From: Escherichia coli
GTDB lineage: Bacteria; Pseudomonadota; Gammaproteobacteria; Enterobacterales; Enterobacteriaceae
Assembly: GCF_013122565.1 (NCBI RefSeq)
Contig: NZ_CP053258.1
Length of the DNA: 64,000 nt
Strand: one strand, 5' to 3'
The position numbers were made by a program, and so were the translations under genes. This document shows positions 21,509 through 36,300 of this stretch, piece by piece. The notes under the pieces are model-generated. The model made no database searches, was not told the DNA's origin, and worked only from the letters and a program-made list of their open reading frames with translations. The first letter of the stretch is position 1. Every line of letters begins with the position of its first letter.

Positions 21509-22435
21509 ATGGAACTTCGCCAGTTACGTTATTTTGTCCGTATTGTGGAAACCGGCAGTATGGGCAGCGCGGCGCTTGATCTCGACATCGGTGTCTCAGC
21601 GCTCAGTCAACAGATGACAAGGCTGGAAAATGAACTCGCCATTCGTCTGTTGCAACGAACCTCGCGTGGCGTAACGCCAACTAACTCGGGTCTGGCCTTT
21701 TACTCACAGGCACAGCTGGCGTTGCGTCATGCTGATGATGCCATTCTTGCTGCGCGCGATGCACGTCTGTCAGGACACGTCAGCGTCGGTATGGCCCCCA
21801 GTACAGCCTCCGTCCTGGGGGTGCCGTTTATTCATGCCATGCGGGCACATTACGCCGACGTTCGCCTGCATGTGGTGGAAAGCCTGTCAGGTAATCTGGA
21901 ACGGATGATCAACACCCGTCAGATTGATCTGGCCGTTGTTTTTCGGAAAGAAAAGCACCTGCGCTGGAGCGCCAGGCCAGTTCTCGAAGAGCAGCTTTTT
22001 CTGATTGGCACACATGATCTGCTGACGGATATTCCGGATGACACCATAACCCCTGCTCAACTGACGAATATTCCCCTGATCATGCCAAGCTCAGGCCACG
22101 GCTTGCGCGGCCTACTGGAGGCTATTTGTCAGGAACACGGGCTGAAGGTTGATATCGCCACGGAAATTGATGGCCTGACGTTACTGATGCGCGCCGTTGG
22201 CAGCGGACTCGGTGCAACATTACAACCCGGAGCAGCCATTTCGCATCTTGAGGGTGAAGCATTAAGAGTGATCGGCATCCATAATCCCATACTCAGCCGC
22301 CCCAATTTTCTGGTCAGCCTATCGGACGATGAACTCCCGCCCGCCGCTCTTGCAGCCCGCGTGATACTTACAAAAGTCATGCGTAAACTTGTTGAAATCG
22401 GCCATTGGCCGGGCGCAACCATTTACGCTCCCTAA
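21509..22435 (+). CDS. tcuR: LysR-family regulator, TcuR-like
   Basis: 308-aa ORF with a LysR HTH (MELRQLRYFVRIVETGSMGSAALDL...) immediately upstream of tcuABC. Confidence 0.8.
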   Translation: MELRQLRYFVRIVETGSMGSAALDLDIGVSALSQQMTRLENELAIRLLQRTSRGVTPTNSGLAFYSQAQLALRHADDAILAARDARLSGHVSVGMAPSTASVLGVPFIHAMRAHYADVRLHVVESLSGNLERMINTRQIDLAVVFRKEKHLRWSARPVLEEQLFLIGTHDLLTDIPDDTITPAQLTNIPLIMPSSGHGLRGLLEAICQEHGLKVDIATEIDGLTLLMRAVGSGLGATLQPGAAISHLEGEALRVIGIHNPILSRPNFLVSLSDDELPPAALAARVILTKVMRKLVEIGHWPGATIYAP

Positions 22436-22532
22436 ACCCCCCTTTAGTTATTCGTTATAGCGCTTACACAACACACGAACATACACTTCATTTACAAATT
22501 TAACAGATGGTTAAAAGGTAGTGGAGTAGACG

Positions 22533-23936
22533 ATGGTTGATGTACTGGTGATTGGCGGTGGTAATGCCGCGCTATGCGCCGCCTTAACCGCTCGTGAGGC
22601 AGGAGCTTCCGTGCTGCTGTTAGAGGCTGCGCCTAGGGAATGGCGCGGCGGGAATTCCCAACACACGCGCAATTTACGCTGTATGCACGATGCACCACAG
22701 GATGTGCTGGTCGAGAGTTATCCCGAAGAGGAATTCTGGCAGGATCTCTGGCGTGTCACCGAAGGCAATACCAATGAAGCGTTGGCGCGCTTGGTGATTC
22801 GAACCTCTTCCCAGTGTCGTGACTGGATGCGTCAGCATGGGGTTAATTTTCAGCCTCCGCTTTCCGGCGCGCTGCATGTGGCGCGCACCAATGCCTTCTT
22901 CATGGGCGGTGGTAAAGCCCTCGTGAACGCCTATTACCGCAGTGCAGAAAAGCTGGGGGTACAGATTCGCTACAGCACGCCGGTACAGGCGCTTGAATTG
23001 CACAACGGCAAATTCGTCGCAGCCCTGGCAGGTCACGAACGCATTGAGGCGAAAGCCTGCGTACTCGCCGCCGGCGGGTTTGAATCCAACCGCGAATGGC
23101 TACGCGACGCCTGGGGAGAGAACGCACGTGGCGAATGGCCAGCCGATAATTTCCTCATTCGCGGCACCCGCTTTAATCAGGGCGTCTTGCTCAAATTTAT
23201 GATCAATGCCGGGGCAGACATTATCGGTGATCCGTCTCAGTCCCATTGTGTGGCGATTGATGCACGGGCACCGTTGTACGACGGCGGCATTTGTACCCGC
23301 GTGGATTGTGTCTCACTGGGTGTGGTAGTCAACCGGGATGCAGAACGCTTTTACGATGAAGGGGAAGATTTTTGGCCGAAACGCTATGCCATCTGGGGAC
23401 GTCTGGTTGCCCACCAACCGGGGCAGATTGGCTACTCCATTATCGACAGCAAAGCGATCGGCCACTTTATGCCGCCAGTTTTCCCCGGCGCACAGGCCAA
23501 TACGCTAAGAGATCTGGCCCGCCAGTTGGGGCTGGATCCCGAACACTTTACCCACACCGTGGAACACTTCAATCAGGCCTGTCAGCTGGGTCAGTTTGAT
23601 CACACGAAGCTGGACAACTGCGCGACGCAGGGCCTGATTCCACCGAAAACCCACTGGGCGCGGCCTATTGATACGCCCCCCTACTACGGTTATGCCCTGC
23701 GACCAGGAATCACCTTTACCTATCTCGGGCTGAAAGTAAATGAACACGCTGCGGTTCATTTCGCAGGCACCCCCAGCCCTAACCTGTTCGTTGCCGGTGA
23801 AATGATGGCAGGCAATGTACTGGGTAAGGGCTATACCGCCGGGGTCGGGATGTCCATTGGCACCACGTTTGGTCGCATCGCTGGTAAAGAAGCCGCTCAG
23901 GCAGCACGCAAGGAGACGCATCATGAAGCAGCTTGA
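22533..23936 (+). CDS. tcuA: Tricarballylate dehydrogenase TcuA (FAD-dependent)
   Basis: 467-aa ORF with an N-terminal FAD-binding motif ([17 protein letters not shown]); followed by tcuB and tcuC. Confidence 0.85.
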
Positions 23937-25062
23937 AAAGTTGATTATCGAGGCCAAAATTCTCACCGAACCAGAGGCTGAAGTCGAGCGGGTGATGCAT
24001 GTGTGTAACGCATGTCGCTATTGCGAAGGATTTTGCGCCGTGTTCCCGGCAATGACTCAACGACTGGAATTTGGCAAAGCCGACATTAACTATCTGGCAA
24101 ATCTGTGCCATAACTGCGGCGCTTGCCTACACGCCTGCCAGTATGCTCCCCCCCATGAGTTTGGGATCAACGTGCCGAAAGCAATGGCAGAGGTACGTCT
24201 GGAAACTTATCAACAGTACGCGCAACCGGCGGTCTTCGGGGCGCTGTATCGCCGGGCTGGCGTCACCGTGACGCTGGCACTGGTCTTAAGTATGTTCCTC
24301 TTTTTACTCCTGGCGATGGGGCTGAAGGGATCGCTGCTCCACCCACCGCTGGCCGGTGATTTCTACCAAATCTTCCCGCACAACCTGCTGGCCTGGATGT
24401 TTGGATCGGTATTCATTCTGGCTATTGGTTTACTGATGGTAGGGGTGATCCGCTTCTGGCGCGAGATTTCTCCCGTCGGGCCGCGCCCAGCGGAAATTGC
24501 CGAAGCGTCGAGCAACGCGCTAACGCTAAAATATCTTGACGGCGGACATGGCAAAGGGTGCAACGAAGCGGACGATGCTTTCACATTGATGCGTCGTCGT
24601 TTCCACCATTTCACCTTCTACGGCTTTATGCTCTGTTTCGCCGCGACCATGGTGGCGACGGGTTACCACTACTTTGCTAGTTGGGAAGCCCCCTACCCAT
24701 TCTTCAGTGTGCCGGTCATGCTTGGCACGTTAGGAGGAGTCGGTTTAATCGTAGGCCCGGCAGGCCTGCTGTGGTTAAACCTTAAGCGCTCGCCACTGCA
24801 TGGCGATGCGCGACAGAAACCGATGGATCGGGGATTTATTTTACTACTGCTCCTGACCAGCCTCACCGGTTTAGGTTTGCTGGTGGGAAGAGATACCTCA
24901 TGGATGGGGATCCTGCTTGCCATCCATCTTGGCGTGGTCATGGCGCTTTTTTTAACAATTCCGTACGGAAAATTTGCCCACGGATTTTACCGCTGCGCGT
25001 CTTTACTCAAATGGGCGATCGAGAAGCGACGTGGAAAACAGGCGGGGGTCGCAAGCGACTGA
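23923..25062 (+). CDS. tcuB: Tricarballylate utilisation protein TcuB (membrane Fe-S protein)
   Basis: 379 aa from ATG 23923 ([12 protein letters not shown]...), which overlaps the tcuA stop. Two Cys clusters ([22 protein letters not shown]) plus hydrophobic segments. Confidence 0.82.
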
Positions 25063-25116
25063 CCCGCACACTCTTACCTCTATACATAATTATGATAAGG
25101 CAATGGAGCAACCTCA

Positions 25117-26412
25117 ATGACTCAACAACCATCGCGTACCGGCACGTTCGGCGCAATACTCCGTGTTACCAGCGGTAATTTTCTCGAACAGTTCGATTTT
25201 TTCCTGTTTGGTTTTTACGCTACTTATATCGCAAAGACGTTTTTTCCTGCCGAAAGTGAGTTTGCCGCATTAATGCTTACTTTTGCCGTTTTTGGCTCCG
25301 GCTTTTTAATGCGCCCTATCGGGGCCGTGGTATTGGGTGCATATATCGACAGAATTGGGCGACGGAAAGGGCTGATGGTTACCCTGGCGATTATGGGCTG
25401 CGGCACGATGCTCATCGCCCTCGTTCCGGGTTATCAGACTATCGGCCTGCTGGCCCCTGTACTGGTCCTGGTGGGGCGTCTGCTACAGGGATTTTCTGCT
25501 GGAGTCGAACTGGGCGGCGTCTCTGTTTATCTTTCTGAGATCGCCACACCAGGCAATAAAGGCTTTTATACCAGTTGGCAATCGGCCAGCCAGCAGGTGG
25601 CGATTGTGGTCGCCGCGCTGATCGGGTACGGTCTGAATGCCACGCTGGGACACGATGAAATCTCCGAATGGGGTTGGCGAATACCGTTCTTCATTGGCTG
25701 CATGATTATTCCGCTGATTTTTGTTCTGCGACGTTCGCTTCAGGAAACTGAAACCTTTTTACAGCGTAAACACCGTCCGGACACCCGGGAAATTTTTACC
25801 ACCATTGCTAAAAACTGGCGTATTATCACTGCGGGAACCCTGCTGGTGGCGATGACGACCACGACATTTTATTTTATTACCGTCTATACCCCCACTTACG
25901 GGAGAACGGTGTTGAACCTGAGCGCACGTGATAGTCTGATCGTCACTATGCTGGTAGGGATTTCTAACTTTATATGGCTGCCGATTGGCGGCGCGATCTC
26001 TGACCGGATTGGGCGTCTCCCGGTGCTAATGGGCATCACCTTACTCGCCATCGTCACCACCTGGCCGGTGATGCACTGGCTTACCGCTGCACCTGACGTC
26101 ACCCGCATGACACTGGTGCTGCTCTGGTTCTCGTTCTTTTTTGGGATGTATAACGGTGCAATGGTAGCAGCCCTGACAGAAGTGATGCCGGTTTATGTCC
26201 GAACCGTGGGTTTTTCGCTGGCCTTTAGTCTCGCCACGGCGATTTTCGGCGGCCTGACACCAGCCATCTCCACTGCATTGGTCCAGTTGACAGGCGATAA
26301 AAGTTCTCCTGGATGGTGGCTAATGTGCGCTGCGCTGTGCGGGCTCGCCGCGACGACAATACTGTTTGCTCGTCTCAGTAGTGGTTATCAGACAGTAAAA
26401 AATAAGCTCTGA
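25117..26412 (+). CDS. tcuC: Tricarballylate/citrate MFS transporter TcuC
   Basis: 431-aa MFS-type ORF downstream of tcuAB. Confidence 0.82.
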
Positions 26413-26418
26413 AACGCA

Positions 26419-26450
26419 AGCAGGCAGAGATATATGTCTGCCTGCTTTCT
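26419..26450 (+). terminator. Terminator-like hairpin after tcuC
   Basis: AGCAGGCAGA / TCTGCCTGCT 10-bp stem, 8-nt loop, followed by TTCT. Confidence 0.5.
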
Positions 26451-26639
26451 CCAGTGCGCCGTAAACCGTGGGCAGCGTGGCACGGGAGTTACGTCACCGG
26501 GCTCTATGCCAACAGTTCAGTGAGTTCGCCGGCGCATCGATGGCTGGTTATGCCAGCAATGTTCAGAGGGAAGAATATTCGTGTGATCATAGCTTGCTTA
26601 TTCCTTGCCTGGGTTAAATTTTCAGACGGCTCAATCCAT

Positions 26640-26892
26640 AAAACCGGTGACTGGGATTAACGTAAGTACGCCCTCTTTCCATCAACACTTCAGGCAGCTT
26701 GCGGGAATGAGTCCACTCCGGTATCAGAAATGACTATGCCTCAGAAGACAGGCGACTAACGATGTCACCACAGCAGCCTATACTGTCGGTTACGAAAGCT
26801 TATCCCATTTCAGTCGGGAATATTCGCGGATGTTTGGAGAGTCACCTAAGAGAGATATTGCCAGATTAAGAAAGTCTGTCGATCAGCTTTAA
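26640..26892 (+). pseudogene. yneL: Decayed AraC-family regulator remnant (yneL-like)
   Basis: Translation gives ...[77 protein letters not shown]. Both AraC-type HTH signatures are present, but an in-frame TGA interrupts them and the inter-helix spacing is shortened. No intact N-terminal domain. Confidence 0.55.
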
Positions 26893-27325
26893 TAAACCCT
26901 GCATTTATCTGGTTAGAGCAATTTGGCGTTAGTTTCAGCAAGCAAACATTAACCATAGCTAATGATTTTTAGCTATATAAACCATTAGTAACTCTTGACC
27001 TTTCCTGACACTTCCCTTGTTCGCAATAATATTCTGTTTAGTCGCTGTTTATAAATAACATGCATAATGAAATCGTCATGTTATTTAGCGACATAAAATG
27101 TCTTTGCAAATACTCTCTTCAATAAGTGCAGCAATAAACTTGTTGTGGATAGGTGTCCTTGTGATTTAAAGATATTATCGTTCTTCGTGAAATGTAATAA
27201 CCCTGGAAACTATATTCTCAGGGCAACAGCCAATCAAGAATGATTCTTGTTTTATAAGCAATAACAGAATGACTTAATTGTTAACTCTCTTTATTCAGCT
27301 ACTTAAATGTAAATTTTGGAGAATT

Positions 27326-27889
27326 ATGAAACTCAAACATGTCGGTATGATTGTCGTTTCTGTGTTGGCGATGTCGTCTGCTGCGGTAAGTGCAGCCGAG
27401 GGTGATGAATCAGTAACGACCACTGTTAATGGCGGTGTTATTCATTTTAAAGGTGAAGTGGTAAATGCCGCTTGTGCGATTGATTCAGAATCAATGAACC
27501 AAACGGTTGAACTGGGGCAGGTCCGTTCTTCTCGCCTGGCTAAAGCGGGTGACCTCAGCTCCGCCGTTGGCTTCAATATCAAGCTGAATGATTGTGATAC
27601 CAATGTTTCCAGTAATGCAGCTGTTGCATTCCTGGGTACTACTGTCACCAGTAATGACGATACGTTAGCGCTGCAGAGTTCAGCGGCAGGCTCTGCCCAA
27701 AATGTCGGTATCCAAATTTTGGACCGTACGGGGGAGGTATTAATACTTGATGGTGCCACTTTTAGCGCTAAAACTGACTTGATTGATGGCACGAATATAC
27801 TGCCGTTCCAGGCTCGTTATATTGCTCTCGGGCAGTCAGTAGCTGGTACTGCAAACGCAGATGCGACCTTCAAAGTTCAATATCTATAA
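27326..27889 (+). CDS. fmlA: F9 (Fml) fimbrial major subunit, FimA-like
   Basis: 187 aa from ATG 27326 with RBS GGAG at 27318-27321; signal peptide and pilin-like C-terminus. First gene of a chaperone-usher operon. Confidence 0.8.
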
Positions 27890-27930
27890 TTCTATCTTAA
27901 GGTGGCTATACGTCATCTGAAAATGAAACA

Positions 27931-27959
27931 GGGTGTGTGTGGCATGGCTACGCACACCC
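27931..27959 (+). other. Imperfect hairpin (GGGTGTG...CACACCC) in the intergenic region after the major-subunit gene
   Basis: Read directly. Its position resembles the intra-operon attenuating stem-loops of fimbrial operons; that role is inference. Confidence 0.3.
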
Positions 27960-28240
27960 GAGCAATTCACCAATGTGAATCTCATTATTAATGAGGAGTG
28001 GTTTGTATTTGGAGCGGTATGAAAAAATCACATAATATCTAAACGATTAATAAACAACAGTAGTTGAACTTACTGTTATTTAAAATATTTACTTAGTAGC
28101 AAGGTTTTCCTATTAAAAGAGAACCAACATTTGTTACAAACGCATTAAGTCTGGAAACCCGGCGACTCGCAATGTATTAGCAACATTTACCGATTGTCTG
28201 ATGTAACGGTTTCCCCGCTTATCCTCTTAACACATGGAGA

Positions 28241-28960
28241 ATGCATCAGATGCAAACTACGCGTACCCCCTACTCTGTTTCCGTTATGGCGACAGTGTTA
28301 CTTTTATTGCTCTTTGCTTGCCATAGCACCGTTGCCAACGCAGCTGTCGCACTTGGTGCGACGCGGGTAATTTATCCGGCAAACCAGAAACAGGTTTTAT
28401 TGCCTGTCACGAATAATGATCCTGCCAGTGTCTATCTCATTCAGTCATGGATAGAAAATGCGGGTGACCAAAAAGACACCCAGTTTGTCATTACCCCACC
28501 ACTTTTTTCCATGCAAGGTAAAAAAGAGAATACGCTGCGGATAATCAACGCCACTAATCATCAGTTACCAGACGACCGTGAAAGCCTGTTCTGGGTTAAT
28601 GTCAAAGCTATTCCTGCTATGGAAAAAGACCAGAAGAATGAGAATACATTACAGCTGGCAATTATTAGCCGCATAAAAATGTTTTATCGCCCCACGAACC
28701 TGGCAATGGCACCTGAAGAAGCGCCTGCAATGCTTCGGTTTCGCCGCAGCGGTAGCAAACTCACTCTTATAAATCCAACGCCCTACTTCATTACCGTAAC
28801 AAATATGAAAGCAGGAAATAGCAATCTCCCAAACACCATGGTGCCGCCAAAAGGTGAAGTATCGGTGGATATCCCGCATGCTGCAACCGGGGATATCAGT
28901 TTTCAAACGATCAATGATTACGGTGCATTAACTCCGCGTATTAAGGCAACCATGCAGTAA
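28241..28960 (+). CDS. Fimbrial periplasmic chaperone (FimC/PapD-like)
   Basis: 239-aa ORF with signal peptide and chaperone-like sequence (…RVIYPANQKQVLLPVTNNDPASVYLIQSWIEN...). Confidence 0.85.
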   Translation: MHQMQTTRTPYSVSVMATVLLLLLFACHSTVANAAVALGATRVIYPANQKQVLLPVTNNDPASVYLIQSWIENAGDQKDTQFVITPPLFSMQGKKENTLRIINATNHQLPDDRESLFWVNVKAIPAMEKDQKNENTLQLAIISRIKMFYRPTNLAMAPEEAPAMLRFRRSGSKLTLINPTPYFITVTNMKAGNSNLPNTMVPPKGEVSVDIPHAATGDISFQTINDYGALTPRIKATMQ

Positions 28961-29001
28961 GCCAGTAACCTAATTAATAATAAACTCAATCGGAATTAAT
29001 A

Positions 29002-31653
29002 ATGACAGCCTTTCGTGCCGCATTTAAGGCATATCGTATGCATCAGGTGTTACTACTGCCTCGCTTTGCACGGCTTACCATTGCCCTTGGCTTAGCAACT
29101 GCGGTATTTCCCGTTGACGCAGAGTATTATTTTAATCCACGGTTTTTAAGCAATGATCTTGCTGAATCTGTCGATTTATCCGCCTTTACTAAGGGACGCG
29201 AGGCACCACCTGGTACATATCGGGTCGACATTTATTTGAACGACGAATTTATGACCAGTCGGGATATTACTTTTATTACAGATGATAATAACGCAGCTCT
29301 CATCCCATGCCTGAGTACAGACCTTCTTGTCAGTCTTGGTATAAAAAAATCAGCGTTATTAGACAATAAGGGACATTCGGCAGAAAAACATGTGCCGGAC
29401 AACAGCGCATGCACACCACTTCAGGATCGTTTGGCTGACGCATCATCTGAGTTTGATGTTGGTCAGCAACATCTGTCACTCTCCGTTCCGCAAATTTATG
29501 TTGGCAGAATGGCTCGCGGCTATGTTTCTCCTGATCTGTGGGAAGAAGGAATAAATGCTGGGCTACTAAACTATAGTTTTAATGGTAATTCTATTAACAA
29601 TCGTAGTAACCATAATGCAGGAAAATCCAACTATGCATATTTGAATTTACAGAGTGGCATTAACATTGGTAGTTGGCGACTGCGCGATAACTCAACGTGG
29701 AGTTATAACAGTGGGAGTAGCAATTCATCTGACAGCAATAAATGGCAGCATATCAATACGTCGGCTGAACGTGACATTATTCCCTTACGCTCACGGTTAA
29801 CGGTGGGTGATAGTTATACCGATGGCGATATTTTTGATAGTGTGAACTTTCGTGGCCTCAAAATAAATTCAACAGAAGCAATGTTGCCCGATAGCCAACA
29901 TGGTTTCGCTCCGGTGATTCATGGTATTGCCCGTGGCACCGCACAAGTGAGTGTAAAACAGAACGGATACGATGTTTATCAGACTACTGTCCCACCCGGC
30001 CCTTTTACTATTGATGATATCAACTCTGCGGCCAATGGTGGTGATCTGCAAGTAACCATAAAAGAGGCAGACGGCAGTATTCAGACATTATATGTTCCTT
30101 ATTCGTCTGTTCCGGTTCTCCAACGTGCTGGATATACGCGTTATGCGCTTGCCATGGGGGAATATCGTAGTGGAAATGACCTGCAAAGCTCCCCCAAGTT
30201 CATACAAGGTAGCTTGATGCATGGACTGGAAGGAAACTGGACACCTTATGGCGGAATGCAAATTGCAGAAGATTATCAGGCCTTAAACCTTGGTATTGGT
30301 AAAGATTTAGGACTTTTTGGTGCCTTTTCTTTCGATATCACGCAGGCCAATACGACACTTGCAGATGGCACCCGTCACAGCGGGCAATCGGTTAAATCCG
30401 TCTACAGCAAATCCTTCTACCAGACGGGAACCAATATCCAGGTCGCAGGATATCGCTATTCTACGCAAGGTTTTTATAACTTATCCGACAGTGCCTACAG
30501 TCGAATGAGTGGTTACACCGTCAAGCCTCCTACCGGAGACAGCAATGAGCAGACACAATTTATTGATTATTTTAATCTGTTCTACAGTAAGCGTGGTCAG
30601 GAACAAATAAGCATCTCTCAGCAGCTTGGAAATTACGGTACGACATTTTTCAGTGCCAGTCGCCAAAGTTACTGGAACACGTCACGCAGCGACCAGCAAA
30701 TATCATTTGGGTTAAATGTGCCGTTTGGTGATATTACAACCTCGCTGAATTACAGCTATTCCAATAATATATGGCAAAACGATCGAGATCATTTACTCGC
30801 TTTTACGCTTAATATTCCCTTCAGTCATTGGATGCGTACAGACAGTCAGTCGGCATTTCGTAATTCAAACGCCAGTTACAGTATGTCAAACGATTTGAAA
30901 GGCGGCATGACCAATCTATCGGGGGTTTATGGCACTCTGCTGCCGGATAATAACCTGAATTATAGCGTTCAGGTCGGTAACACCCACGGGGGTAATACAT
31001 CGTCTGGCACCAGTGGTTACAGTTCTCTTAATTATCGTGGAGCTTACGGTAATACTAATGTCGGTTACAGTCGGAGTGGCGAAAGCAGCCAGATTTATTA
31101 TGGAATGAGTGGTGGCATTATTGCTCATGCTGATGGCATCACCTTTGGACAGCCGCTGGGCGACACAATGGTTCTGGTTAAGGCTCCTGGCGCTGATAAT
31201 GTCAAAATAGAGAACCAGACCGGAATTCATACTGACTGGCGTGGCTATGCCATATTACCATTTGCGACAGAATATAGAGAAAATCGTGTCGCTCTTAACG
31301 CGAATTCCCTGGCAGATAATGTTGAACTGGATGAAACCGTGGTCACTGTCATCCCAACTCACGGTGCTATTGCCAGAGCAACATTTAATGCACAAATCGG
31401 CGGGAAAGTATTAATGACGTTGAAGTACGGTAATAAGAGCGTTCCATTCGGTGCAATTGTCACTCACGGAGAGAATAAAAACGGCAGCATTGTCGCGGAA
31501 AACGGTCAGGTTTATCTGACTGGACTTCCACAGTCAGGGAAATTACAGGTTTCATGGGGCAAAGATAAAAACTCAAACTGTATTGTCGAGTACAAGCTTC
31601 CTGAAGTTTCTCCTGGTACCTTACTGAACCAGCAGACAGCAATCTGTCGCTAA
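29002..31653 (+). CDS. ydeT: Fimbrial outer-membrane usher (FimD-like), full length
   Basis: 883-aa ORF. In K-12, ydeT is only a C-terminal fragment; here it is intact. Confidence 0.85.
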   Translation: MTAFRAAFKAYRMHQVLLLPRFARLTIALGLATAVFPVDAEYYFNPRFLSNDLAESVDLSAFTKGREAPPGTYRVDIYLNDEFMTSRDITFITDDNNAALIPCLSTDLLVSLGIKKSALLDNKGHSAEKHVPDNSACTPLQDRLADASSEFDVGQQHLSLSVPQIYVGRMARGYVSPDLWEEGINAGLLNYSFNGNSINNRSNHNAGKSNYAYLNLQSGINIGSWRLRDNSTWSYNSGSSNSSDSNKWQHINTSAERDIIPLRSRLTVGDSYTDGDIFDSVNFRGLKINSTEAMLPDSQHGFAPVIHGIARGTAQVSVKQNGYDVYQTTVPPGPFTIDDINSAANGGDLQVTIKEADGSIQTLYVPYSSVPVLQRAGYTRYALAMGEYRSGNDLQSSPKFIQGSLMHGLEGNWTPYGGMQIAEDYQALNLGIGKDLGLFGAFSFDITQANTTLADGTRHSGQSVKSVYSKSFYQTGTNIQVAGYRYSTQGFYNLSDSAYSRMSGYTVKPPTGDSNEQTQFIDYFNLFYSKRGQEQISISQQLGNYGTTFFSASRQSYWNTSRSDQQISFGLNVPFGDITTSLNYSYSNNIWQNDRDHLLAFTLNIPFSHWMRTDSQSAFRNSNASYSMSNDLKGGMTNLSGVYGTLLPDNNLNYSVQVGNTHGGNTSSGTSGYSSLNYRGAYGNTNVGYSRSGESSQIYYGMSGGIIAHADGITFGQPLGDTMVLVKAPGADNVKIENQTGIHTDWRGYAILPFATEYRENRVALNANSLADNVELDETVVTVIPTHGAIARATFNAQIGGKVLMTLKYGNKSVPFGAIVTHGENKNGSIVAENGQVYLTGLPQSGKLQVSWGKDKNSNCIVEYKLPEVSPGTLLNQQTAICR

Positions 31654-31666
31654 GGAACAATAGATT

Positions 31667-32197
31667 ATGAAATACAATAACATTATTTTCCTCGGTTTAT
31701 GTCTGGGGTTAACCACCTATTCTGCTTTATCCGCAGATAGCGTTATTAAAATTAGCGGGCGCGTCCTCGATTATGGCTGCACAGTCTCATCGGATTCGCT
31801 TAATTTTACCGTAGATCTCCAAAAAAACAGTGCCAGACAATTTCCAACGACCGGTAGCACAAGTCCAGCCGTCCCTTTTCAGATTACGTTAAGTGAATGC
31901 AGCAAAGGGACAACGGGAGTTCGGGTTGCATTTAACGGTATTGAGGATGCAGAAAATAATACTCTGTTGAAACTGGATGAAGGGAGCAATACGGCCTCCG
32001 GTTTGGGTATAGAAATACTGGACGGAAATATGCGTCCGGTGAAATTGAATGACCTTCATGCCGGGATGCAGTGGATCCCACTGGTACCAGAACAGAACAA
32101 TGTTTTGCCTTACTCCGCTCGTTTGAAGTCAACTCAGAAGTCCGTCAATCCGGGACTGGTGAGCGCTTCGGCAACATTTACCCTTGAATTTCAATGA
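31667..32197 (+). CDS. ydeS: Fimbrial minor subunit YdeS
   Basis: 176-aa pilin-like ORF with signal peptide. Confidence 0.85.
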   Translation: MKYNNIIFLGLCLGLTTYSALSADSVIKISGRVLDYGCTVSSDSLNFTVDLQKNSARQFPTTGSTSPAVPFQITLSECSKGTTGVRVAFNGIEDAENNTLLKLDEGSNTASGLGIEILDGNMRPVKLNDLHAGMQWIPLVPEQNNVLPYSARLKSTQKSVNPGLVSASATFTLEFQ

Positions 32198-32209
32198 TCA
32201 GAGTCAGAT

Positions 32210-32713
32210 ATGAAAAGACTTCACAAGAGGTTCCTGTTAGCTACGTTTTGCGCGTTATTCACAGCAACTCTCCAGGCCGCCGATGTCACTATCACTGTTA
32301 ATGGTCGGGTAGTCGCTAAACCCTGCACTATTCAAACCAAAGAAGCTAACGTTAATCTCGGGGATCTTTATACACGCAATCTGCAACAACCTGGTTCTGC
32401 ATCAGGCTGGCACAATATTACTTTGTCATTAACCGATTGTCCGGTTGAAACAAGTGCAGTGACGGCAATCGTGACAGGTTCAACTGACAATACGGGTTAT
32501 TACAAAAATGAAGGTACTGCCGAAAATATTCAGATAGAGCTAAGGGATGACCAGGATGCGACGTTAAAAAATGGCGATAGCAAAACGGTTATTGTTGATG
32601 AGATCACTCGTAATGCACAGTTTCCACTTAAGGCAAGAGCTATCACGGTGAATGGAAACGCAAGCCAGGGAACGATCGAGGCGCTAATCAATGTGATCTA
32701 CACTTGGCAATAA
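32210..32713 (+). CDS. ydeR: Fimbrial minor subunit YdeR
   Basis: 167-aa pilin-like ORF with signal peptide. Confidence 0.85.
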   Translation: MKRLHKRFLLATFCALFTATLQAADVTITVNGRVVAKPCTIQTKEANVNLGDLYTRNLQQPGSASGWHNITLSLTDCPVETSAVTAIVTGSTDNTGYYKNEGTAENIQIELRDDQDATLKNGDSKTVIVDEITRNAQFPLKARAITVNGNASQGTIEALINVIYTWQ

Positions 32714-32772
32714 CGTCGATTCGATTTTCTTAGCCTCCTTTTTAAATCAATTTTTTAACCTTAGGATATATC

Positions 32773-33687
32773 ATGGGTAAAACAATAAGTATGAAGGTTC
32801 TGTTCGGTATTTATCTTCTATTAATAGCAGGCAAAGTTTTTGCCTTCAGTTGTAATGTCGATGGCGGGTCAAGTATTGGAGCAGGTACAACCTCTGTTTA
32901 TGTTAATCTCGACCCTGTAATACAACCGGGCCAGAATCTGGTTGTAGACTTGTCTCAGCATATAAGTTGCTGGAATGATTACGGCGGCTGGTACGACACT
33001 GATCATATAAACCTGGTACAAGGCTCAGCTTTCGCAGGCTCCCTACAGTCATATAAAGGATCGCTGTACTGGAATAATGTGACCTACCCCTTCCCGTTGA
33101 CAACAAATACCAACGTATTGGATATTGGTGATAAGACACCGATGCCATTACCGTTAAAACTCTATATTACTCCAGTCGGGGCGGCCGGCGGAGTTGTCAT
33201 AAACGCGGGGGAAGTTATTGCCCGTATTCATATGTATAAAATTGCAACATTAGGAAGCGGAAATCCGCGTAATTTTACGTGGAATATTATTTCAAATAAC
33301 AGTGTTGTTATGCCAACAGGCGGCTGCACCGTTGATAGTCGTAATGTCAACGTGAATCTCCCGGACTTTCCTGGAAGCGCAGAAATACCCCTTGGCGTAT
33401 ATTGCTCAAGTGAACAAAAGCTCTCATTTTATCTTTCGGGTGCTACCACTGACAGTGCCAGACAAGTGTTTGCTAACACAGCACCAGATGCAACAAAAGC
33501 AGCGGGAGTGGGTGTCTCTCTGATGCGTAATGGAAAAATACTGGCTACGGGAGAAAATGTCTCCCTGGGGACAGTAAATAAAAGCAAAGTACCTCTGGGT
33601 TTAAGCGCAACCTATGGACAAACAGGAAACAAAGTTTCAGCCGGAACCGTCCAGTCAGTCATTGGTGTCACTTTTATCTATGAATAA
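32773..33687 (+). CDS. ydeQ: Fimbrial tip adhesin YdeQ (FimH/FmlH-like two-domain adhesin)
   Basis: 304-aa ORF, last gene of the operon; adhesin-like length and signal peptide. Confidence 0.85.
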
Positions 33688-34020: not shown

Positions 34021-36300
34021 ATGAAGAAAAAAATTGAATCCTACCAGGGAGCTGCCGGTGGTTGGGGTGCTGTTAAATCCGTAGCGAATGCAGTACGTAA
34101 GCAGATGGATATACGCCAGGATGTTATTGCCATGTTTGACATGAATAAGCCAGAGGGCTTTGACTGTCCGGGTTGTGCATGGCCAGATCCTAAGCACAGT
34201 GCGTCATTCGACATTTGTGAAAACGGCGCAAAAGCAATCGCCTGGGAAGTCACGGATAAGCAGGTAAACGCCTCTTTCTTTGCTGAGAATACGGTTCAAT
34301 CATTACTTACCTGGGGAGACCACGAGCTTGAGGCTGCGGGGCGACTCACTCAGCCTTTGAAATATGATGCCGTCAGCGACTGTTACAAGCCATTAAGCTG
34401 GCAACAAGCTTTCGATGAAATTGGCGCACGCCTTCAAAGCTATAGTGATCCCAATCAGGTTGAATTCTATACTTCGGGCCGCACTTCCAATGAAGCTGCC
34501 TTTCTTTATCAGCTTTTTGCCCGTGAATACGGGAGCAATAACTTTCCCGACTGCTCCAACATGTGCCATGAACCGACCAGTGTGGGTTTGGCAGCGAGTA
34601 TCGGTGTGGGTAAAGGGACCGTGTTGCTGGAAGACTTTGAGAAATGCGATTTAGTCATTTGCATTGGGCATAACCCTGGTACAAACCACCCTCGCATGTT
34701 GACTTCGTTGCGCGCTTTAGTGAAACGGGGAGCGAAAATGATCGCCATCAATCCTCTACAGGAACGTGGTCTGGAGCGATTTACCGCACCGCAAAACCCG
34801 TTTGAAATGCTGACGAACTCTGAGACTCAGTTGGCCAGTGCCTACTATAACGTGCGCATTGGTGGCGATATGGCGTTGCTCAAGGGGATGATGCGCCTGT
34901 TAATTGAGCGCGATGATGCTGCAAGCGCCGCAGGTCGGCCCTCATTGCTGGATGACGAATTTATTCAAACGCATACCGTCGGCTTTGACGAGCTACGCCG
35001 TGACGTTCTCAATTCCGAGTGGAAAGATATCGAACGTATTTCTGGACTAAGTCAGACTCAAATCGCCGAACTGGCTGATGCATATGCCGCTGCCGAACGC
35101 ACCATTATCTGTTACGGAATGGGGATCACTCAGCACGAACATGGTACCCAGAATGTACAGCAACTGGTCAATCTGCTGTTGATGAAAGGTAACATTGGCA
35201 AGCCTGGTGCGGGTATCTGCCCACTACGAGGTCACTCTAATGTACAGGGCGACCGAACCGTCGGTATCACCGAGAAACCGTCTGCAGAGTTTCTGGCTCG
35301 CCTGGGTGAGCGCTATGGTTTCACCCCACCTCATGCACCTGGACATGCTGCAATTGCCAGCATGCAAGCGATATGTACGGGGCAGGCTCGAGCATTGATC
35401 TGCATGGGGGGCAACTTTGCACTGGCAATGCCAGATCGGGAAGCGAGCGCTGTACCGTTAACGCAATTAGATTTGGCGGTACACGTAGCCACTAAGCTTA
35501 ACCGCTCTCATCTGCTGACCGCACAGCATAGCTATATTCTGCCGGTTCTTGGGCGTAGCGAGATTGACATGCAAAAAAGCGGTGCGCAGGCGGTAACCGT
35601 TGAGGATTCAATGTCGATGATTCATGCCTCGCGTGGCGTGTTAAAACCCGCCGGTGTAATGCTGAAATCAGAGTGTGCAGTGGTCGCGGGTATCGCGCAG
35701 GCGGCACTACCCCAGAGCGTGGTAGCCTGGGAGTATCTGGTGGAAGATTATGATCGCATTCGCAATGACATTGAAGCTGTGCTGCCAGAGTTCGCCGACT
35801 ATAACCAGCGCATCCGACATCCTGGAGGTTTTCACCTGATAAACGCAGCTGCTGAAAGGCGCTGGATGACGTCGTCAGGTAAGGCTAATTTCATTACCAG
35901 TAAAGGGCTGTTAGAAGATCCCTCTTCAGCGTTTAACAGTAAGCTAGTCATGGCGACAGTACGCAGTCACGATCAGTACAACACGACGATTTATGGTATG
36001 GATGATCGCTATCGAGGGGTATTCGGTCAACGAGATGTGGTCTTTATGAGTGCTAAACAAGCTAAAATTTGCCGTGTAAAAAACGGCGAAAGAGTTAATC
36101 TTATTGCGCTTACGCCAGACGGTAAGCGAAGCTCACGCCGCATGGATAGATTAAAAGTGGTCATTTACCCTATGGCTGACCGCTCACTGGTGACCTATTT
36201 TCCAGAATCGAATCACATGCTAACACTTGATAACCACGATCCATTAAGTGGCATTCCAGGCTATAAAAGTATTCCGGTTGAATTAGAACCATCAAATTAA
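34021..36300 (+). CDS. ydeP: YdeP, molybdopterin oxidoreductase-family acid-resistance protein
   Basis: 759-aa ORF; sequence and length match K-12 YdeP. Confidence 0.93.

Follow-up and report, generated by a model that had tools for sequence, protein, structure and literature searches.

In Escherichia coli K-12 MG1655, the interval between hipA and ydeT holds yneL (b1506, 1590334-1590536), which is annotated as a pseudogene. One study treats YneL as a pseudogene whose configuration depends on the strain and which gives some microarray signal, and it reports a signal for K-12 yneL under many conditions (PMC9308461). The promoter of the neighbouring F9 fimbrial operon has been mapped in CFT073, in which transcription starts 251 nt upstream of the start codon, with a -10 element CATAAT and a -35 element TAGTCG, and the region 5' of f9 is, according to the same authors, variable (PMC3966885).

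We analysed the corresponding locus in a stretch of 64,000 nucleotides of E. coli (contig NZ_CP053258.1 of assembly GCF_013122565.1), referred to below as the window. The segment 26665-26892 is best read as a non-functional yneL pseudogene remnant, the 3' quarter of the gene for a regulator of ~305 aa with an AraC_N domain and a double helix-turn-helix (HTH), and we give this reading a probability of roughly 0.9. That yneL is a pseudogene was already known; the window allele is a rare and more decayed form. An internal stop, a frameshift and truncation relative to full-length homologues, the signs on which PGAP calls a pseudogene, are all present in the remnant. The features of the locus, with the evidence for each, are:

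11784-11790, plus strand: GTTAAAT at the left junction of the accessory block, the same point being used by a different block in the contig L011 (junction comparison)
11791-26664, no strand assigned: 14.9-kb accessory block absent from K-12 and O157 (BLAST break-points, annotation of strains VE-T9 and LHM10-1, Pfam)
26420-26450, plus strand: terminator-like hairpin with a T-rich tail after tcuC, the stop of which is at 26412 (terminator scan)
26578-26664, plus strand: accessory-block sequence abutting the remnant, 89.8% identical to L013 4358-4444, which lies inside the block of strain 0-4
about 26660-26670, plus strand: putative secondary deletion junction (comparison with strain 0-4)
26665-26892, plus strand: yneL remnant, the last ~76 codons of an AraC_N/HTH_18-type regulator (translation, Pfam, BLAST collinearity, alignment to P0387, PGAP pseudogene)
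26731-26733, plus strand: in-frame TGA replacing a conserved Trp codon, TGG, the W of 'YQKWLRL' (alignments, anchor search)
26743-26744, plus strand: site of a 2-bp deletion, AT being lost, with CTCA/GAAG against CTCAATGAAG and the frame shifted (alignments)
26758-26759, plus strand: site of a 16-bp deletion, the position being good to 1-2 bp (alignments; BLASTP against P0387)
27039-27075, plus strand: f9 promoter, with -35 TAGTCG at 27039-27044, -10 CATAAT at 27063-27068 and the transcription start, G, at 27075 (match to the CFT073 mapping, PMC3966885)

The gene order of the window is that of the yneL locus. A yneO-type autotransporter gene (4457-9877) and hipA (10360-11688) are followed by the 14.9-kb stretch, the remnant, the F9 operon (27326-33687, with the major subunit at 27326-27889, the chaperone at 28241-28960, the usher at 29002-31653, and then ydeS, ydeR and ydeQ) and ydeP (34021-36300), which puts the remnant between hipBA and the F9 ydeT/S/R/Q fimbrial genes, in an order collinear with K-12, O157, MRY15-131 and L011. 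When the K-12 locus was compared with the window by BLAST, identity was 97.6% up to 11790, 90.8% over 26701-27149 and 98% from 30427 onward, the middle stretch (467 aligned columns) being the one that contains b1506/yneL and its downstream spacer. Collinearity with O157:H7 G5295, MRY15-131 and L011, a metagenome-assembled contig, resumes at 26665-26668. The window remnant and the K-12 pseudogene share the end CAGCTTTAATAA, and the nearest allele at the nucleotide level is L011/P0003, not K-12. On synteny and sequence together we therefore identify the remnant as yneL. The first-pass annotation of this DNA had already read it as a decayed yneL, a view that the synteny, the identity to K-12, the 5' truncation, the nonsense codon, the two frameshifting deletions and the PGAP label all bear out.

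Translation of the plus strand over 26605-26895 showed that the remnant retains the HTH1 recognition helix, a damaged linker helix, HTH2 and the native stop, TAA at 26890-26892, directly followed by a second TAA. With stops masked, the 92-residue translation matches Pfam HTH_18 with an E value of 2.7e-13 and 50.5 bits, against a cut-off of 33.6, over profile positions 5-76 of 80, and HTH_AraC with an E value of 7.4e-9 in two stretches; the resemblance to AraC-type regulators, proposed in the first-pass annotation, is therefore not due to chance. That annotation also held both HTH signatures to be recognisable, which is true of HTH2 and of the recognition helix of HTH1, the only part of that motif to survive, its first helix being gone. 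The span then given to the remnant, 26640-26892, is right at its end, the native TAA, and has to be shortened at its start, the first 25 bases (26640-26664) being accessory-block sequence and yneL homology beginning at about 26665. Homology to the AraC/XylS DNA-binding domain, of ~100 residues and two HTH motifs, is unambiguous, yet the domain is incomplete, with, besides the lost helix, a stop in the linker and a linker 6 residues short.

In the ORF list, neither HTH falls within an intact ORF that has a start codon; at the remnant the list gives only a 42-aa ORF, which starts with TTG and stops at the TGA, and a 35-aa ORF read in a different frame. Searches of the whole window by tblastn with six relatives (P0122, P0138, P0121, P0005, P0003 and P0007) gave matches at 26614-26889 only, and no trace of AraC_N (PF06719) was found anywhere in the 64 kb with relatives including P0122 and P0138. 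The promoter and terminator scan gave consensus-level matches inside the remnant and nothing beyond, and no Rfam family was found in 26300-27400, where the only matches were spurious ones of miRNA models on the tcuC terminator hairpin.

The lesions were defined in alignments of the window with VE-T9, O157, MRY15-131, K-12 and L011, and the deletions were scored relative to all the undamaged E. coli alleles aligned. The change from TGG to TGA falls in the helix connecting the two HTH motifs. An anchor search at this site found ATGACT in the window, VE-T9, LHM10-1 and ET201, and ATGGCT in K-12, O157, MRY15-131, L011 and strain 0-4, so that the TGA reported earlier between the HTH signatures is confirmed at 26731-26733. 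The 2-bp and 16-bp deletions together remove 18 bp, or 6 codons, which restores the frame and leaves the segment between them read out of frame; BLASTP against P0387 accordingly gives two 3-residue gaps. The spacing between the motifs, earlier put at about 7 residues too short, is indeed short, by these 6. Chance alone gives a net deletion divisible by three (2+16=18) one time in three. The ~92% identity to other E. coli was considered as the mark of a foreign allele, from another species, and this was rejected, the deficit consisting mostly of the 18 gap columns and of SNPs held in common with the L011 allele.

Full-length matches to 26560-26960 at 99.0% identity were found in five of 5,426 complete E. 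coli genomes, and a sixth carrier of the window allele is ET201, in which IS1 cuts the fragment. The TGA and both deletions were read directly, and are identical, in VE-T9, LHM10-1 and ET201; three further complete genomes match the same segment with the same 99.0% identity and score. PGAP names the window allele 'helix-turn-helix domain-containing protein; internal stop; incomplete; missing N-terminus', and internal stop and incomplete are its labels in the three genomes inspected (VE-T9, LHM10-1 and ET201), the VE-T9 pseudogene corresponding to window 26656-26892. Because the stop recurs in independent assemblies and in PGAP, it is genuine and already part of the public annotation. Found in 6 of 5,426 complete genomes, the lesion pattern is rare enough to be a handy lineage marker. 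These genomes differ from the window in other respects: the F9 operon is whole in the window, but in VE-T9 and LHM10-1 IS3 has removed the chaperone and the greater part of both the major subunit and the usher, and in ET201 IS1 has removed the operon almost entirely. In VE-T9, whose island is larger, adjacent integrase genes stand at the left side of the island.

When 1.84 billion representative proteins were searched exhaustively with the translation of the undamaged O157 allele, full-length relatives of 300-320 aa came up in which the HTH is C-terminal and which consist, by Pfam, of AraC_N (PF06719) and then HTH_18. A word-indexed search with the short query listed matches up to ~1.75 times the query length, and the full-length orthologues surfaced with a longer query. 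Intact close orthologues are P0387 of Klebsiella pneumoniae (309 aa; 1,937 member sequences), P0389 of Enterobacter (304 aa) and P0390 of Kosakonia radicincitans (304 aa). The names 'GlxA family with amidase domain', carried by the first matches in the JGI data, were discarded for the parent, as the full-length relatives have AraC_N and not DJ-1/PfpI. Judged by these relatives, the intact ancestor was a regulator of ~305 aa with AraC_N followed by HTH_18, an architecture that we take to be shared with the YqhC-type regulators of E. coli, of the AraC_N family. Alignment to intact relatives and to the K-12 fragment had been suggested earlier as a check; besides the 90.8% identity to the K-12 stretch, it gave a match to residues 226-309 of P0387 only, with 61 identities in 84 positions (73%, gaps included). 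As nothing else of P0387 aligns, the N-terminal ~225 codons and the start codon are missing from the remnant.

Other Enterobacteriaceae also hold imperfect copies. In Enterobacter cloacae (L008 8001-8753), the C-terminal 160 residues of the regulator are joined to a UbiD_N fragment, and in Klebsiella quasipneumoniae (L009 4216-5158) the gene is split by a frameshift near codon 65; the regulator gene has been damaged independently in these species. Over 82 codons, the E. coli remnants and the Klebsiella (L009) and Enterobacter (L008) orthologues show a synonymous divergence of only 0.34-0.47, which looks low for these genera, and there is a hint here that the ancestral gene may have been transferred horizontally.

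In all E. coli examined yneL is already a 3' fragment, and its truncation is therefore older than the accessory block. The O157 allele is open for 89 codons and has no N-terminal domain, that of MRY15-131 has a TAA near its end, that of K-12 has lost 1 bp and had its 5' part replaced, and that of DETEC-E223 has IS2 inside it; many E. coli alleles keep an open frame of 82-120 codons. Pairwise omega within E. coli was 0.27-1.14, on 5-16 substitutions, against 0.06 for Klebsiella versus Enterobacter; for O157 versus the other alleles it was 0.27-0.34, on 12-16 substitutions only. The values are consistent with relaxed constraint on yneL within E. coli, although the numbers are small, and some residual constraint may persist in other lineages.

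The accessory block holds genes for an AIDA/TibA-like autotransporter, a TibC-like glycosyltransferase, an MFS transporter, a GH5 cellulase-family hydrolase and a LacI regulator, together with tcuR, tcuA, tcuB and tcuC. Collinearity with K-12, O157 and MRY15-131 ends at 11790 and restarts at 26665-26701, so that the remnant marks the right edge of the block, as had been noticed before; what has to be refined is the nature of that edge. In strain 0-4 (NZ_CP076262), tcuRABC is followed by ~1.27 kb that includes a PrlF-antitoxin pseudogene, by GTTAAAT, and then by an untouched K-12-type spacer and yneL, which are 99.3% identical to K-12; some 610 bp more of the block lie beyond the segment that matches window 26578-26664. 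Because strain 0-4 has the longer block and the untouched spacer and yneL, the arrangement in the window would derive from a 0-4-like one by a deletion of ~750 bp, and the present right edge is probably a secondary deletion junction, not the original insertion boundary. Upstream of 26665, identity to other alleles in the alignment is near random at the DNA level. We did not accept the 'INV' before STPSF as continued yneL homology (VQM), because 26578-26664 is homologous to the internal block of strain 0-4; with a deletion junction at about 26660-26670, the likeness of 'INV' to 'VQM' would be fortuitous. The GTTAAAT at 26613 was likewise rejected as the right-hand repeat of the block, being internal to the block in strain 0-4 too.

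Several further observations concern the block itself. On the minus strand at 12148-16910, a 1195-aa AIDA/TibA-like autotransporter adhesin (ESPR signal, AIDA repeats, autochaperone and beta-domain) adjoins a 386-aa TibC-like heptosyltransferase, and this pair is intact in the window, whereas in VE-T9 and LHM10-1, the closest complete genomes, it is either truncated or disrupted by IS elements. Immediately after tcuC, a stretch of 165 bp (26413-26577) is found at ~93% identity on 41 E. coli plasmid records, mostly of ~190 kb; sequence comparison suggests that the tcu module moves between plasmids and chromosomes. At 26590-26612, 18 of 21 nt match the K-12 hipA-yneL spacer (L004, minus strand, ~6600-6625; ATAGCTTGCTTATTCCTTGCC against ATAGCCTGGTTATTCCCTGCC), which ties block sequence to the K-12-specific spacer that replaced the 5' part of yneL.

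The left end of the block can be compared with L011. That contig has after hipA a 7.8-kb redox/detoxification block (genes for LysR, DJ-1/PfpI, aldo-keto reductases, flavodoxin_2, ABM and CMD), bracketed by the 7-bp direct repeat GTTAAAT at 201-207 and 7982-7988. For the tcu block, the window shows GTTAAAT on the left and strain 0-4 shows it on the right (L013 5060-5066); in strain 0-4 only this right-hand copy was read, and the left-hand one comes from the window, which has the same block. A single copy is present in K-12. The AIDA-like/tcu block and the L011 block are unrelated, yet they lie at exactly the same point downstream of hipA. We regard it as a speculative and rather unlikely proposition that this point is a specific integration hot spot, with an unrecognised site-specific insertion mechanism rather than illegitimate recombination; were it true, the yneL fragment would be a collateral victim of repeated insertion events.

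The history that best accommodates the locus would begin with a gene that entered, or was present in, the Escherichia ancestor and lost its 5' three-quarters. The fragment would then have drifted, acquiring lineage-specific lesions (the 1-bp frameshift of K-12, the TAA of MRY15-131, the IS2 of DETEC-E223 and the IS1 truncation of ET201), before a cargo block with tcuRABC was inserted at GTTAAAT just after hipA. In the lineage of the window, the ~750-bp deletion may finally have taken the right end of the block with its GTTAAAT, together with the spacer and ~40 nt at the start of the remnant, producing the present junction.

The remnant very probably does nothing now, and nothing positive argues for a function, although several other accounts of the segment have to be weighed. 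Errors of sequencing or assembly in an otherwise open yneL fragment might have produced the stop and the short spacing, and most other E. coli alleles are indeed open across the stop point; nothing specific supports such errors, however, and with the TGA and the 2-bp and 16-bp deletions identical in VE-T9, LHM10-1 and ET201, and three further genomes giving the same score, we consider the chance of this negligible. Even if repaired, the fragment would still be without ~225 N-terminal codons and a start. It is hardly more credible that a small stand-alone HTH protein is still made, whether the TGA is read through or recoded or translation begins internally, and that it works as a DNA-binding regulator or anti-regulator. 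Other lineages, and Enterobacter, do have open 82-aa ORFs, annotated as AraC family regulators, that begin at the Met of 'VQMSTPSF', and an expression signal exists for K-12 yneL (PMC9308461), but that microarray signal speaks of transcription at most, and not for the window allele, in which the Met is replaced (INVST) and both the TGA and the stretch read out of frame between the deletions interrupt the frame. The ORF list, moreover, has no start codon before HTH2, Rfam gave no SECIS-like or other known RNA element in 26300-27400, and the helix between the two HTH motifs, which sets their relative geometry, has lost 6 residues.

Somewhat less improbable, but still improbable, is that the DNA of the remnant is kept as a cis-acting part of the F9 upstream region, for instance for H-NS spreading or for the binding of another regulator. 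The mapped f9 -35 element is 147-410 bp downstream of the remnant, f9 is repressed by H-NS, with putative H-NS motifs at -111 and -103 (PMC3966885), and the 3' part of yneL is kept in most E. coli that retain the 5' end of f9. Against this, the mapped promoter and the 251-bp fragment bound by H-NS are downstream of the remnant, and the authors of that study write that no evidence ties the neighbouring putative regulators to the control of f9 (PMC3966885). In the window, the f9 promoter is conserved and begins 147 bp downstream of the stop of the remnant, outside it, with the ATG of the major subunit at 27326. The 1-kb interval with the remnant has ~50% GC, against 42% for the promoter interval, and is not typical H-NS nucleation DNA, and the region tolerates IS2 and IS1 insertions, deletions and 5' replacement in different strains. 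A decayed pseudogene remnant stays our preferred reading. As such, the remnant is useful as a landmark, placing at about 26665 the right boundary of the 14.9-kb block with its AIDA-like adhesin and tricarballylate utilisation genes, and as a caution to annotators that no AraC regulator should be called beside the F9 operon in strains with the window allele.

Among the described counterparts of the remnant, the yneL pseudogene of K-12 (b1506) has the same chromosomal position, the same 3' end and the same TAA TAA stops, both being 3' fragments of one ancestral gene. The two differ in how they were broken: K-12 yneL has lost 1 bp in HTH2, and unrelated sequence takes the place of its 5' part, with the change at the equivalent of 26701, whereas the 5' junction in the window is at 26665 and leads into the tcu-containing block. 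Undamaged E. coli alleles are ~86-92% identical to the Klebsiella, Enterobacter and Kosakonia proteins over the HTH domain. P0387, P0389 and P0390 are full length and have AraC_N, no part of which is left in the remnant, and the K. pneumoniae gene is divergent from an alpha/beta-hydrolase and DUF2255 pair, with no F9 fimbriae nearby, a neighbourhood of which nothing occurs in the window.
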